From: a virus
Taxonomy: Duplodnaviria > Heunggongvirae > Uroviricota > Caudoviricetes
Reading direction: 5' to 3' (one strand)
Virus record (IMG/VR): IMGVR_UViG_2718218360_000001
Length of the DNA stretch: 23,550 nucleotides
Notes under the pieces: generated by a model
What the model was told of the DNA's origin: nothing
The model's database searches: none
The model's input: the letters and a program-made list of their open reading frames with translations, nothing else
Shown: positions 1 through 4,562 of the stretch, piece after piece
How positions within the stretch are numbered: position 1 is the stretch's first letter
Layout of the letters: each line of letters starts with the position of its first letter
Translations under genes and position numbers: made by a program

Positions 1-1206
1 ATGGGATATAAAGTAAAGAAATTCATCATGAGTAGTGGAGAGCGAGGATGCCTGATCCTTGATAAAAAAAGTAATCTACCAACTTACTATCAAAATCTAT
101 TTCTTACTACAGACATAAGAAATAGAGGCGCAACGGCCTCAACGATGGAAATAGTTGCAACTAACTTACTAATTTTCAGTAATTTCTTGGATGGTAGGGG
201 AATTGATATAATTGAGAGAGTTGAACTTAAAAAATATCTCAGCGTTGCAGAAATAGATGATCTGGTAAGATATGCGAAACAAAGATTCGACAGACAAAAA
301 ATCATAAATATAAAATCGACAAATTATAGGTTTATTGCGAAGAGAACCTTTAGTTATAGAATACACGTTTTTTCACGCTACCTTAAGTGGTTATGTGGAT
401 TAGTTCATTCGTCAAAGGGGATTCATGCAAAGTATGAAGTAGACGTATTTATTGAAAGTATCAGAGCACATATTCCAAGAAACAGTTCATTGAATATGAA
501 TGAAATATCTGAAAAATCGTTGAATGAAGAAGAGATCAAAGTGCTTTTCCGTCTATTGGAAATTGGCGGGATTGAAAACCCTTTCCATAAGGAAGTACAG
601 GTCAGGAACAGACTAATATTTACCTTGCTCTTAAATTTAGGTTTAAGGGCTGGAGAGTTGCTCAATCTTAAAATAGATGATTTTGATCTCAGAGACAACA
701 CTTTAAGTGTAGTCAGAAGACATGATTCAAAAGAAGATGGAAGATCTTATCAACCATTAGTAAAGACTGGAGAAAGGGTTATTCCGTTATCTGATGAGTT
801 AGCCCGTGAAATTTTTGATTACATAAGCAATAGCAGAGAAAAAATGACAAAAAGGAAAAAGCATAATTTCTTATTTGTGGCTCATTGCACCGGAAAAAAC
901 GCAGGAGAACCCTTAAGCATTTCAGCTTATGAGAAGGTGATATCAACACTGAAACGAGCAAGTCCAGAGCTATATAATCTTTCAGGCCATAGGTTAAGGC
1001 ACTCTTGGAATTATATGTATTCTAAAGGAATAGAAGGTGCTGAATTAGAATATAATAGAAGGAAAGATTTAAGGAATTATTTAATGGGTTGGTCAAAGGA
1101 GTCAATAATGTGTGATAGATACAACTATAAATATATATCGCAACAAGAGAAGGATGTCGTCCTAAAGGTCTATAAATCAGTAAGTAAAATAATTAGTGGA
1201 GTTTAG
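1..1206 (+). CDS. Tyrosine recombinase (phage-integrase family), first of three consecutive recombinase genes; may be 5'-partial at the window edge
   Basis: Translation shows Arg-I region (LGLRAGELLNL), box II HRLRHSW, and a catalytic Tyr region (CDRYNYKY). TAG stop at 1204-1206 lies 1 nt before the next gene's ATG at 1208. Very AT-rich. Confidence 0.8.
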   Translation: MGYKVKKFIMSSGERGCLILDKKSNLPTYYQNLFLTTDIRNRGATASTMEIVATNLLIFSNFLDGRGIDIIERVELKKYLSVAEIDDLVRYAKQRFDRQKIINIKSTNYRFIAKRTFSYRIHVFSRYLKWLCGLVHSSKGIHAKYEVDVFIESIRAHIPRNSSLNMNEISEKSLNEEEIKVLFRLLEIGGIENPFHKEVQVRNRLIFTLLLNLGLRAGELLNLKIDDFDLRDNTLSVVRRHDSKEDGRSYQPLVKTGERVIPLSDELAREIFDYISNSREKMTKRKKHNFLFVAHCTGKNAGEPLSISAYEKVISTLKRASPELYNLSGHRLRHSWNYMYSKGIEGAELEYNRRKDLRNYLMGWSKESIMCDRYNYKYISQQEKDVVLKVYKSVSKIISGV

Positions 1207-1207
1207 T

Positions 1208-2521
1208 ATGGAAAACAAATGTATTGAAAGTGAGCAAATCTTTTTTGCTAAGATGAACAGGTATAGTTTCAAACTGTCAGATAAGAAATGGCAACTGGAT
1301 AAAGAAAACTGCGTATACCCTCATAAAGTTGTAGATAGAATGCCTACAAAAATGAAACTTAGCTACTTAAAAACATTGGCTTACTATGCGTCTGAATATA
1401 GTTCTTTTTATATTCAAAGTATTAACAATCTATTTTATGAGTGGTTTGGTGCGATGACTATCGATACTATTGATGACAAAGCAATATATCAATTGAATGT
1501 TTATTTAGGTTCAGAAAGAAACTACAAACTAAACTTAATTAAGGCTTTCATCATTAAATGGAAAAATCTCAATTACCCTGGGGTAGAAGCGACTGCCATT
1601 AGAATGCTGGAGAAAATAAAAATCATTCCAAACCAAACAGGAGATGCAGTTAAAAGACGAGATCCAAATAAAGGACCTTTAACTGAAGCGGAATTCAATA
1701 ACATCATTAACGCCGTTGGAAAATTTTATCATGAGAAGAAAATTCAATGCTTTTTGTATTGTTATATCCTTTTGCTGGCAATAACAGGAAGAAGGCCATT
1801 ACAATTAATATCTCTAAAAGCTAAAGATCTCATTAAAAATGAGAGAGGGTGCTTTTTGAATGTACCAAAAGTAAAACAAAGAAAATGTTTCAGAAAAGAA
1901 TTTAACATGGTTATGATAGAGCCGTTCTTATATGACAGCTTATCAATGCTAATTAATCAAAATCAGGCGTTTGTTGAAGATAAATTCAGTGTTGGGATTA
2001 GTAACTATAGAGGCGAATTACCAATCTTCATGAATTTAGATAAGATTACGGAAACAAAAAGGATTGAGGATTTTTTATATGATTTAACAACAGATTTTTT
2101 CCATATGAAAAATTCAGTTATGTCAAAACTATTAAAACACTTTCCGTCAAAATTCGATGTTAGGTCAGAAAGGACTAACAGCTATATAGAACTTAATGCT
2201 AGAAGATTCAGATATACGTTAGGAAGTCGACTGGCTAATGAAGGAGCCTCAATTGAGGTGATTGCTAAAGCGTTAGATCATAAATCAGTAAACTCTTCTA
2301 TAATATATATAAAAAATAATCCTGACAACGTTTATGACATCGATAAGAGACTAAGTGCGTTTTTTAACCCCTTATCTAATATACTTATGGGCATAGAGAT
2401 TGAAGAAAACAAGAACTTTTTTATCAAGTTTGTTTCAGATGCATTTTTCTTATTGGAAGATACGAAAGAGGATTTGAAATGTTTAACGTGTAAAAAATTC
2501 AATCCCTGGAGAGCATTATGA
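1208..2521 (+). CDS. Tyrosine recombinase, second of the trio (variant box II)
   Basis: GGAG at 1197-1200 then ATG 1208. Motifs TGRRPLQL (Arg-I), RRFRYTLGSRL (box II with H replaced), ALDHKS...IIYIK (His/Tyr region). Stop TGA 2519-2521 overlaps the next ATG 2518-2520 (ATGA coupling). Confidence 0.7.
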   Translation: MENKCIESEQIFFAKMNRYSFKLSDKKWQLDKENCVYPHKVVDRMPTKMKLSYLKTLAYYASEYSSFYIQSINNLFYEWFGAMTIDTIDDKAIYQLNVYLGSERNYKLNLIKAFIIKWKNLNYPGVEATAIRMLEKIKIIPNQTGDAVKRRDPNKGPLTEAEFNNIINAVGKFYHEKKIQCFLYCYILLLAITGRRPLQLISLKAKDLIKNERGCFLNVPKVKQRKCFRKEFNMVMIEPFLYDSLSMLINQNQAFVEDKFSVGISNYRGELPIFMNLDKITETKRIEDFLYDLTTDFFHMKNSVMSKLLKHFPSKFDVRSERTNSYIELNARRFRYTLGSRLANEGASIEVIAKALDHKSVNSSIIYIKNNPDNVYDIDKRLSAFFNPLSNILMGIEIEENKNFFIKFVSDAFFLLEDTKEDLKCLTCKKFNPWRAL

Positions 2522-4163
2522 ACAATATATTTATTTTTGAACCAAGCAATAAAAACAACCCTCTCGATAATGTTATTAAGTTTATCGAGTTTTGTAAGAG
2601 TACTATTTCTAATAATAATTTAACAACTTCATGGGAAAGCAATAAATGGAAAGGTTTATATAGGTTTACTAAGTTTAACTCAAAAAACAACCTAAACAGC
2701 AAGGAGTGCTTAGATGATAGCTTTATTAATTTTGCTAAAGCATATATGTTGCATGTGCATTCATTCAATAAATCTAAGACGAAACACTCAACATTATCAA
2801 TGTTGAAGATTGTCGAATTCGTTTTACTTAAAATCAATATGGAAGCTAATGTAAACTATTGCAACAATTCAATCTATGATGAATGCATAAGGATAGCCTC
2901 TGAAAAGTATTCTAAAGCACATGCATTTGCTATTGGGAAAGAACTTGAGAAATTGAGTTCATTTTTAAATGATAATAGGATGACTAACTCATTTTATTTA
3001 TTTTGGGTAAATCCAATTAGGTATAGGATTACTCAGTCTTGGACTGGTTATGATTCTTCACTGGAAGGCCATTCTAGATTGCCTGATATCAAATCAGTTA
3101 TTGCGATTGCTGAGATTTTTTCAAAGCGGGATGAACAATTATCGTCAAGAGATATATTTACTACATCTGTGCTTGCTTTACTTATGTGTGCACCGAGTAG
3201 GATATCGGAAATTTTAGCTTTGCCAGCGGATTGTGAAATCACAGAATGTGATGGAAAGGGCATTCAAAGATACGGTTTAAGATTTTTTTCAGCAAAAGGG
3301 TATGAAGGCAATATAAAATGGATTCCAACTTTAATGATACCTGTAGCTAAAAAGGCTATTAGCAGATTAAAAGAATTATCAAGTCAAGCGAGGTTATTGG
3401 CTGCTGAAATTCAAAAGAATTACTCTAATTCAACGAAGGGAACCCTTAAAGAAAATATACCTCCTGATCTCTTTTGGTATGATAGAGAGAAGAAAATCAA
3501 ATATTCTAATGCGCTTTGCTTGTTAACTGAAGGACAGTTAAATCAAAATAAAAAGGAAATGTCAGATAAATTATTCAGACCTACAACGAATTTTTTTAAA
3601 ACTGATATCATTGATTCTGATTATATAAAAGGGTATTTTAATGTTTTTAAAAGACATGGTTATATAAATGAAGATGGTAGCCCATATTTGCTAAGAACAC
3701 ATCAACTAAGGCATCTTCTCAACACATTTGCTCAAATAAATGGTATGGATGAAATGGTATGGATGAATTTAGTATTGCTCGCTGGTCTGGACGTAAGCTT
3801 ATTTCTCAAAATGTTTCTTATGACCACAGATCGCATCTTCAAATGTCTAAAGCAATAAGAGAAAAAAAGTTATCAGTATGTGTTAATGAGCACAGAATAA
3901 AGGATATTCCAGTAGTGGATCTTAATGAGTTTGACTCACTTAGTAGTGGTGCAGTACTTGTATCAAAACATGGCTACTGCAAGCACTCATATGCGTTTAA
4001 GCCGTGTGATAATTATCCAATTAAGAACTCTGGTTTAGATAACGAAACGATTTCAAATATCCACGATAAAATTTTAAAAAGAACACTGTATGATAAAAAT
4101 GATGGGAACATAAATGCTGATAAATGGTATGAATTCCATAAAAAAATAAAAAAAGGAGAATAA
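2518..4163 (+). pseudogene. Tyrosine recombinase, third of the trio, frameshifted by a 14-bp tandem duplication (ORFs 2518-3858 and 3759-4163)
   Basis: Upstream part carries APSRISEI (Arg-I) and HQLRHLLNTF (box II). Downstream ORF in the other frame carries SGRKLISQNVSYDH (catalytic Tyr region). Deleting one 14-bp copy joins them in frame (...INGMDE|FSIARWSGRK...) into about 544 aa. Confidence 0.65.
3739..3766 (+). repeat. Perfect tandem duplication of 14 bp (AATGGTATGGATGA x2)
   Basis: Read directly: 3739-3752 and 3753-3766 are identical; period-14 identity spans 3738-3767. Confidence 0.9.
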
Positions 4164-4562
4164 ATGGCTAAGCATATAAATGGTTATCATGAGAAGAAGA
4201 TTGTAGATGTTATTAACACATGGTCTATAGATGAAAAACTAACCTGGAATGCTTTGTGCGATAGGTTAGTCAGGGTTATTGGGAAAAGACCATCAAGACA
4301 ATCCTTAAGTAGTCATGTAAGGATTGCGGAAAGCTTCAATGTGAAAAAAACCACAATCAAATCTGGTGTAATACACACTGTAAAACCTGCTAATTTAAAA
4401 GTGGCTTCTCAACGAATTAAAAGACTTGAAGCAGAAAATGAAGCTTTGAAGGCATTAAATGAACGCTATTTAGAGCAGTTCAAAGTATGGCTTTATAATG
4501 CTCACCTTAAACAAATAACGATTGAAGAACTTAATAATCCGTTACCTGCAAAATACCTTTAA
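4164..4562 (+). CDS. Small protein (132 aa) coupled to the recombinase trio; possible helix-rich accessory or regulatory protein
   Basis: AAGGAG at 4153-4158, ATG at 4164 directly after the upstream TAA (4161-4163). C-terminal heptad-like segment KRLEAENEALKALNERYLEQF. No recognisable enzymatic motif. Confidence 0.55.
   Translation: MAKHINGYHEKKIVDVINTWSIDEKLTWNALCDRLVRVIGKRPSRQSLSSHVRIAESFNVKKTTIKSGVIHTVKPANLKVASQRIKRLEAENEALKALNERYLEQFKVWLYNAHLKQITIEELNNPLPAKYL

Follow-up and report, generated by a model that had tools for sequence, protein, structure and literature searches.

A probable GInt ginABCD operon, decayed and stranded in a truncated genomic island of Escherichia coli O157:H7

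The 23,550-nucleotide stretch analysed here (IMG/VR virus record IMGVR_UViG_2718218360_000001; the whole stretch is called the window) opens with three consecutive tyrosine recombinase genes and a small fourth gene. We conclude that window positions 1–4562 are very probably the ginABCD operon of a GInt, belonging to an enterobacterial subclade and preserved as a decayed copy in a truncated island of the Escherichia coli O157:H7 chromosome. The GInt, a genomic island carrying three integrases, is defined by this operon, which in the published plan stands at the 5' end, cargo and a short AT-rich 3' end coming after it, with short imperfect repeats (10–17 nt) flanking the element (Bardaji et al., 2017, PMC5385486). 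In Pseudomonas, ginABCD is co-transcribed and each of the four genes is needed for circular excision and site-specific integration; the integration site is short and imperfectly repeated, which fits cuts staggered by 6 nt (Bardaji et al., 2017, PMC5385486). There GinA, GinB and GinC have the tyrosine-recombinase fold, with GinD as a small accessory protein. The O157 gin locus is a member of a known element class that had been catalogued previously, and not a new system.

The window lies in the island hotspot between ypjA and ssrA, which holds prophage CP4-57 in K-12. This site is hotspot #9 in the numbering of Hochhauser et al. (2023, PMC10121019), with an occupant in 62% of genomes. Many O157:H7 chromosomes are 100% identical to the first 7 kb of the window. 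In one of them, strain SS NE 1040-1, window position 1 is the ATG of a gene annotated 'tyrosine-type recombinase/integrase', and the copy sits between the adhesin gene ypjA and ssrA/smpB. Extending the window leftward in this strain reached DUF6387 and alpA genes and then ypjA, with no recognisable att site. The element's left boundary is indeed outside the window, as the preliminary description of this DNA had said. The contrast in base composition that it had pointed out was also seen: GC content is 0.29–0.37 over window positions 1–~6500 and mostly ~0.45–0.57 to the right. Its statement that the element class is rare did not hold for E. coli, since the first 7 kb of the window found a match in 392 of 5426 complete E. 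coli genomes (7.2%), and GInt blocks have been reported in 7.5% of Escherichia replicons (Idola et al., 2023). The ypjA gene (ehaD; positions 15505–16718 of the SS NE 1040-1 locus, which we call L001), left of the window, is interrupted by IS1203 in this O157 strain according to RefSeq.

The assignment to GInt is carried by direct comparison with described Gin proteins. Fragments of Pseudomonas stutzeri DSM4166 GinA, GinB and GinC, printed in Figure S1 of Bardaji et al. (2017), served as references, and in BLASTP against the four window proteins solely the corresponding pairs matched. GinA was 32% identical to its counterpart over 228 aa (99 bits) and GinB 25% over 227 aa (51 bits); the N- and C-terminal GinC fragments both matched window GinC, collinearly, at 30 and 28.5 bits, which is weak on its own (~30 bits, with E-values from a four-sequence database). 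Identities of 25–32% fall within the 24–40% reported between GInt families (Bardaji et al., 2017, PMC5385486). The locus also appears in a published catalogue, in which RefSeq was searched by PSI-BLAST with GinC and GinD, and ginC-ginD synteny blocks were listed in Additional file 10 (Idola et al., 2023). That file contains O157 Sakai ECs_3510/ECs_3509 and WP_001052051 as such a block, and we assign GinD to GInt because WP_001052051 stands in this table. GInts, under the name 'Tn6571-family', have been described in E. coli (Hochhauser et al., 2023, PMC10121019).

The likeness extends to the layout: the four genes stand in the published order with similar sizes, GinA and GinB have a recognisable recombinase domain, GinC is recognisable by fold only, and GinD is small and without a known domain. 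Profile searches, the check that had been proposed for these proteins, detected Pfam Phage_integrase (PF00589) in GinA (E = 2.4e-18) and GinB (E = 2.9e-11) and in neither the third nor the fourth protein. GinB additionally scored 320 bits against NCBIfam NF041502 'integrase_1', below the cut-off of 350, and a PDB sequence search with the ginB product returned nothing. For GinC, there was no Pfam or NCBIfam match and a PDB sequence search gave only noise. A model was obtained from a 32-sequence family alignment with AlphaFold2, run on a 95%-identical homologue (mean pLDDT 76.7), and Foldseek matched it to tyrosine recombinases only among PDB structures (Cre, XerH, Tn1549 Int, IntI and lambda Int; probability 1.00, target-normalised TM-score ~0.5, both domains covered). 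We call GinC a tyrosine recombinase because of this predicted fold, in place of a sequence-profile match, and as far as profiles and models tell, all three large proteins carry the tyrosine-recombinase fold. They are not recent duplicates of one another, as had been claimed from their differing signatures: GinA, GinB and GinC have no mutual similarity detectable by BLASTP (all E > 3). An hhalign comparison of the GinC family with GinA was not significant (probability 0.17%), the aligned stretch covering only the box-I arginine region.

Candidate catalytic residues are kept in all three proteins. GinA R216, K255, H330, R333, W364 and Y374 do not vary among 73 distinct homologues; GinB R195/R196, K223, R335, H358 and Y367 are kept in 72–73 of 73; and GinC R228, K260, H395, R398, W418 and Y430 in 73–75 of 75. 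In its spacing the GinC set resembles the R-K-H-R-W-Y of Cre and, judged from motif spacing and the predicted fold, is a candidate catalytic set. The GInt class description gives GinD a helical (HLH-like) C-terminus. The window GinD belongs to no Pfam or NCBIfam family; in its single-sequence model, which is of low confidence (pLDDT 63), there are three helices at the N-terminus, one hairpin and, at residues 77–115, a long C-terminal helix.

The tight spacing that the preliminary description had read was found in the sequence. The ginA stop (TAG 1204–1206) and the ginB start (ATG 1208–1210) are separated by 1 nt, ginB and ginC overlap by 4 nt (ATGA 2518–2521), and the fourth open reading frame (ORF; 4164–4562) begins with its ATG at the base after the ginC stop (TAA 4161–4163), leaving a 0-nt gap. 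A GGAG Shine-Dalgarno motif lies 6–7 nt before each internal start, inside the upstream gene. Because of these tight junctions and internal motifs, ginABCD probably forms a single translationally coupled operon. A promoter and terminator scan was uninformative, with fewer promoter-like sites than in shuffled controls. In the alpA-ginA intergenic region, ~150 nt to the left of window position 1, there is a perfect palindrome of 20 bp, TTTATTTGACGTCAAATAAA (L001 ~19842–19861; in this numbering 27274–28014 corresponds to window 7274–8014), which is kept in two other aligned E. coli islands. Two TTTGTAAAG-like motifs lie at ~-278 and ~-20 relative to ginA (L001 19722 and 19980). The palindrome and the motifs are possible operator or recombinase-binding sites, candidates by their sequence and position.

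Conserved synteny of the recombinase trio elsewhere, on which the preliminary description had made its proposal depend, was found in a survey of other genomes. One genome per species was scanned with the GinC alignment, yielding 78 loci that were annotated with iterative hidden Markov models built from the O157 proteins. The order GinA-GinB-GinC-GinD was present in 72 of them, and the six exceptions were degraded or cut by contig ends. Loci with ginABCD only numbered 49/78, mostly from other Gammaproteobacteria with several Enterobacterales included. In the other 29/78, ginD is followed by a further gene, g5; 24 of these have alpA upstream and 25 a relaxase gene downstream, and g5 was seen only in the clade marked by one or both of these. 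Except for one gut metagenome-assembled genome (MAG) labelled Collinsella, the g5 group is from Enterobacterales. This conservation refutes the idea that nested island insertions happened to assemble the three recombinases from unrelated integrases. The hotspot is full of island and prophage debris, as that idea would have it, yet the same four-gene order recurs across many genera, all four families co-occur, and the start and stop codons abut or overlap with a Shine-Dalgarno motif inside each upstream gene; we give chance accretion next to no credence.

We considered whether the trio could belong to another known system. The preliminary description had left the choice between a GInt and a RIT (recombinase in trio) element, whose overlapping ritA, ritB and ritC genes supposedly travel together in one compact unit (Van Houdt et al., 2012, PMC3414803; Ricker et al., 2013). 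The GInt half of that proposal stands, by gene order, sizes, the fourth gene, the Gin matches and the catalogue entry. A RIT element shares with the O157 locus three adjoining recombinase genes on one strand with very short gaps or overlaps (4–8 bp in RIT), but it has no conserved fourth gene and all three Rit proteins have recognisable RH-Y motifs, whereas ginD belongs to the unit in 72/78 loci and the third protein here, at 543 aa, has no Phage_integrase match. The specific matches, moreover, go to GinA, GinB and GinC, RIT elements occur mainly in alpha- and beta-proteobacteria, and the literature separates GInt from RIT. We therefore rejected RIT membership as very improbable on account of the conserved fourth gene and a third protein unseen by recombinase profiles.

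The strand-biased circularizing integrative element (SE; 2023, PMC10214605) comes nearer in gene number. It too has four core genes of similar sizes and spacing, encodes tyrosine recombinases of large and of ordinary size as well as a small protein, and inhabits gammaproteobacterial hosts. Its order, however, is intA, tfp, intB, srap; the second protein is non-catalytic, and the third is large and catalytic. The second protein here, GinB, has a recombinase domain and keeps R, K, R, H and Y in 72–73 of 73 homologues. No sequence relationship between SE and the gin locus was seen, the score against NCBIfam GmtY being negligible (21–22 bits against a cut-off of 340; the gamma-mobile-trio is a possible, unverified proxy for SE). 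In the published catalogue, GinC and Tfp cluster separately, as do GinD and Srap, and for the O157 Sakai chromosome the replicon table gives a count of 0 for SE and 1 for GInt blocks (Idola et al., 2023). An SE was rejected on these grounds and seems to us scarcely credible. The Tn554 family (TnpA, TnpB, TnpC) likewise combines several tyrosine recombinases with a small accessory protein and inserts site-specifically, but a Tn554-like reading was rejected since Tn554 has two recombinases, not three, and Firmicutes hosts.

The third gene of the window is broken. It is split into ORFs 2518–3858 and 3759–4163 in different frames, and a perfect 14-bp tandem duplication of AAATGGTATGGATG lies at 3738–3765 (100% match, 2.1 copies in Tandem Repeats Finder). 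Deleting one AAATGGTATGGATG copy in silico restores a frame of 1632 nt encoding 543 aa, equal to the length of the intact Sakai gene ECs_3510, and RefSeq records ginC of an identical strain as a frameshifted pseudogene. Thus the description of three tyrosine recombinases of 401, ~437 and ~544 aa applies to the first two ORFs and to all three folds, and fails for the third ORF. The duplication was counted with an 86-nt probe across the site in E. coli genomes carrying the locus (n = 347): 52 matched the probe at 100%, and 289 lacked the duplication, matching with a gap of exactly 14 nt. Because of these two classes of match, we conclude that the duplication is a genuine mutation, passed on clonally within one O157:H7 sublineage, and no assembly error. 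O157 strains without it, such as Sakai, have four intact gin genes and the same truncated island. Cattle and beef isolates predominate among the listed carriers (e.g. FRIK2455, FRIK2069 and the SS/TX series).

The O157 copy falls in an enterobacterial subclade in which the operon lies inside islands integrating at tRNA or tmRNA genes, with alpA upstream and g5 and relaxase/MobC genes downstream. The commonest layout in this subclade is tRNA, P4-type integrase, DUF6387, alpA, ginABCD, g5, variable genes and a leftward hyp221-relaxase-MobC block. In the proL island of E. coli 20KM2762, a perfect 21-bp direct repeat of the tRNA-Pro 3' end bounds the whole island, which has its integrase on the tRNA side and DUF6387-alpA-ginABCD at the opposite end. 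Such islands have been labelled 'IME__GInt', including one in the same hotspot in enterotoxigenic E. coli H10407 (Hochhauser et al., 2023, PMC10121019). The 'IME__GInt' islands of hotspot #9, which extend from a pseudogenised alpha-amylase gene to smpB, occupy the same chromosomal hotspot as the O157 copy and resemble its relatives L004, L006 and L003 in joining a gin-type trio to a relaxase-bearing island; the O157 copy differs in having no relaxase, variable cargo or integrase. An integrative and mobilisable element (IME) comprises an integrase and a relaxase or oriT within att repeats, a combination seen in the close relatives and not in the O157 copy.

In O157, collinearity with the Enterobacter genomosp. 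O island (L014), at 92–98% identity, begins at the start of DUF6387, which lies 1479 nt to the left of the window, and stops at window position 7273; an incomplete IS30 transposase starts at 7274. None of relaxase, MobC, hyp221 or island integrase is annotated from the island to ssrA (RefSeq, identical strain), and a repeat of the ssrA 3' end sought at the ypjA-side junction of the O157 island was not found. The O157 island is thus a fossil, cut by IS30 at 7273/7274 and with no recognisable ends left. All four genes are required in the Pseudomonas system and ginC is frameshifted here, so the window copy should be inert, and it probably can no longer move.

Since the collinearity with the Enterobacter island reaches 7273, the gene with the Pro-Glu repeat and the bamE-like gene (Table 1) belong to the island. 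The N-terminal 335 aa of the 432-aa cargo product are matched at 98% identity in islands of Enterobacter, Pantoea and Xenorhabdus by proteins encoded at the same position, and bamE-like homologues stand directly before hyp221-relaxase-MobC in 12 other islands. The g5 gene is 85% identical in the island where a divergent gin operon replaces the O157-type one (L004) and is present in an island without gin (L005). Both g5 and the relaxase side thus act as conserved backbone of these islands. No defence system was noted among the annotated surviving island genes, for which no defence-system search was run.

Table 1. Features of the gin locus and the surviving island in the window.
Feature	Position	Strand	Basis or remark
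ginA, tyrosine recombinase, 401 aa	1–1206	+	Pfam Phage_integrase, P. stutzeri GinA match, conserved candidate catalytic residues
ginB, tyrosine recombinase, 437 aa	1208–2521	+	Pfam Phage_integrase, NCBIfam near-threshold match, P. stutzeri GinB match
ginC pseudogene, intact form 543 aa	2518–4163	+	Predicted fold match, collinear P. stutzeri GinC fragments
Perfect 14-bp tandem duplication (AAATGGTATGGATG x2) frameshifting ginC	3738–3765	+	Tandem Repeats Finder
ginD, small accessory protein, 132 aa	4164–4562	+	Identical to WP_001052051.1
g5, 137 aa, function not known	4660–5073	+	Comes after ginD in the island-linked clade of Enterobacterales
Island cargo gene, 432 aa, with (Pro-Glu)n tract	5469–6767	+	ORF table, repeat finding
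bamE-like gene (RefSeq: BamE domain-containing protein)	6843–7238	-	Last surviving island-backbone gene
IS30 transposase fragment, island truncation point	7274–8014	-	RefSeq: incomplete IS30 transposase

Several observations weigh against the assignment to GInt, in addition to the low GinC scores given above. In the islands of this subclade ginA is internal and not at the island edge, with the operon between alpA and g5 beside a P4-type integrase and a relaxase, and the visible island ends are tRNA-derived repeats typical of P4-like integrases. Imperfect direct repeats of the attL/attR type (10–17 nt in the published plan) and an AT-rich 3' end were not identified around the operon. Pseudomonas GinC has been described without the first arginine (Bardaji et al., 2017, PMC5385486), and other literature describes GinC without the catalytic motif, whereas GinC here keeps all candidate residues in 73–75 of 75 homologues. 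An empty site joining alpA directly to g5 was absent from the 5426 E. coli genomes, and independent movement of the gin unit is undocumented. The O157 copy differs further from described GInts in being frameshifted and truncated.

We asked whether the gin cassette is a unit of its own within these islands. In this proposal, a unit of ~4.85 kb, which starts with TTTGTAAAGTTT, 278 nt upstream of ginA, and ends with the ginD stop, would itself be a cargo-less GInt that inserts site-specifically between alpA and g5 of islands with a P4-type integrase and relaxase and spreads by riding on these mobilisable islands, with GinA, GinB and GinC all catalytically active. We regard this whole proposal as rather unlikely. 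If true, it would explain why the gin cassette is 92–100% identical and the island flanks 64–86%, and how the same slot elsewhere can hold a divergent gin operon. The rival proposal is that tRNA-integrating mobilisable islands with P4-type integrase, AlpA and relaxase stably inherit the operon as one of their modules, and that it is not an autonomous GInt; possible roles for such a module are a second integration and excision system, multimer resolution or transfer control. It concerns function in these islands and is compatible with GInt homology, and we consider it possible, though still doubtful.

Identity and edges speak for a cassette that spreads independently. The window operon is 92–100% identical at the nucleotide level to those of Brenneria, Xenorhabdus, Enterobacter, Klebsiella oxytoca, Pantoea and an Enterobacteriaceae MAG (L012–L017), and we infer recent inter-genus transfer from this identity. 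The same range holds for the stretch from TTTGTAAAGTTT to ginD between O157 and the loci of the five genera named (six genera with Escherichia), against 64–86% for DUF6387 and alpA, a pattern that a stably inherited island module would not lead one to expect. Its left edge, TTTGTAAAGTTT, falls at the same nucleotide in nine other loci, and in comparisons with Serratia and Yersinia the ginD stop is the point at which homology starts again. These sharp, recurrent edges are only candidate ends, defined by alignment. In E. coli CFSAN061771, also in the ypjA-ssrA hotspot, the alpA-g5 slot holds a divergent gin operon (L004 13614–18488; 403, 453, 628 and 131 aa) in a backbone otherwise 85–89% identical to the O157 island, and one island of the same family (L005) is wholly without a gin operon; both findings likewise count against the module.

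The fixed setting of the operon favours the module instead. Its place is invariably between alpA and g5, relaxase/MobC being downstream, even where GinC is only 34–44% identical, and the intact 20KM2762 island is bounded by its 21-bp tRNA-Pro repeat beside the P4-like integrase, with no repeats close to gin. Terminal direct or inverted repeats and extra TTTGTAAAGTTT copies were sought around the operon and gave chance-level matches in AT-rich DNA only; no terminal repeats flanking the cassette were found. The empty-site search, in which two chimeric alpA-g5 queries were run against the 5426 E. coli genomes at >=80% query coverage (at least 80%), returned nothing; the alpA stop followed by ~44 nt and then TTGATAGGTTTTAACTATTGAC is the arrangement that would define attB. 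The right edge of a high-identity block between two E. coli islands was tried as a site-specific end and rejected: it falls inside the relaxase gene and therefore points to homologous-recombination mosaicism.

The Pro-Glu tract of the 432-aa gene is encoded by a perfect hexanucleotide array, (GCCAGA)30.7, at window 6488–6671. In otherwise identical O157 genomes, the span matched by a 7000-nt query ranged over ~6910–7108 nt, always in two pieces, and because of this variation the (GCCAGA)n copy number appears to differ between strains in the manner of a variable-number tandem repeat. Beyond the IS30 fragment lies a decayed lambdoid prophage (8344–20993) interrupted by IS66 genes (RefSeq). Its genes include ninG and those for an HNH protein, an antiterminator and a holin, and there are fragments of tail-fibre genes. 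It also carries the type III effector genes espW (17683–18741, minus strand) and espM2 (19653–20243), and DUF1076 (NleG-like) genes.

The window copy itself is of very little importance, being a dead copy of a described class that already stands in published supplementary tables. It does allow an annotation to be corrected, the entry 'DNA-binding protein, frameshifted' being the ginC pseudogene, and the 14-bp duplication offers a clean, simple marker for one O157:H7 sublineage. The enterobacterial relatives of the ginABCD operon are of wider use. They lie in well-delimited tRNA islands and keep all candidate catalytic residues in the three large proteins, and they would provide a convenient E. 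coli system for how three recombinases and a small protein share one reaction.

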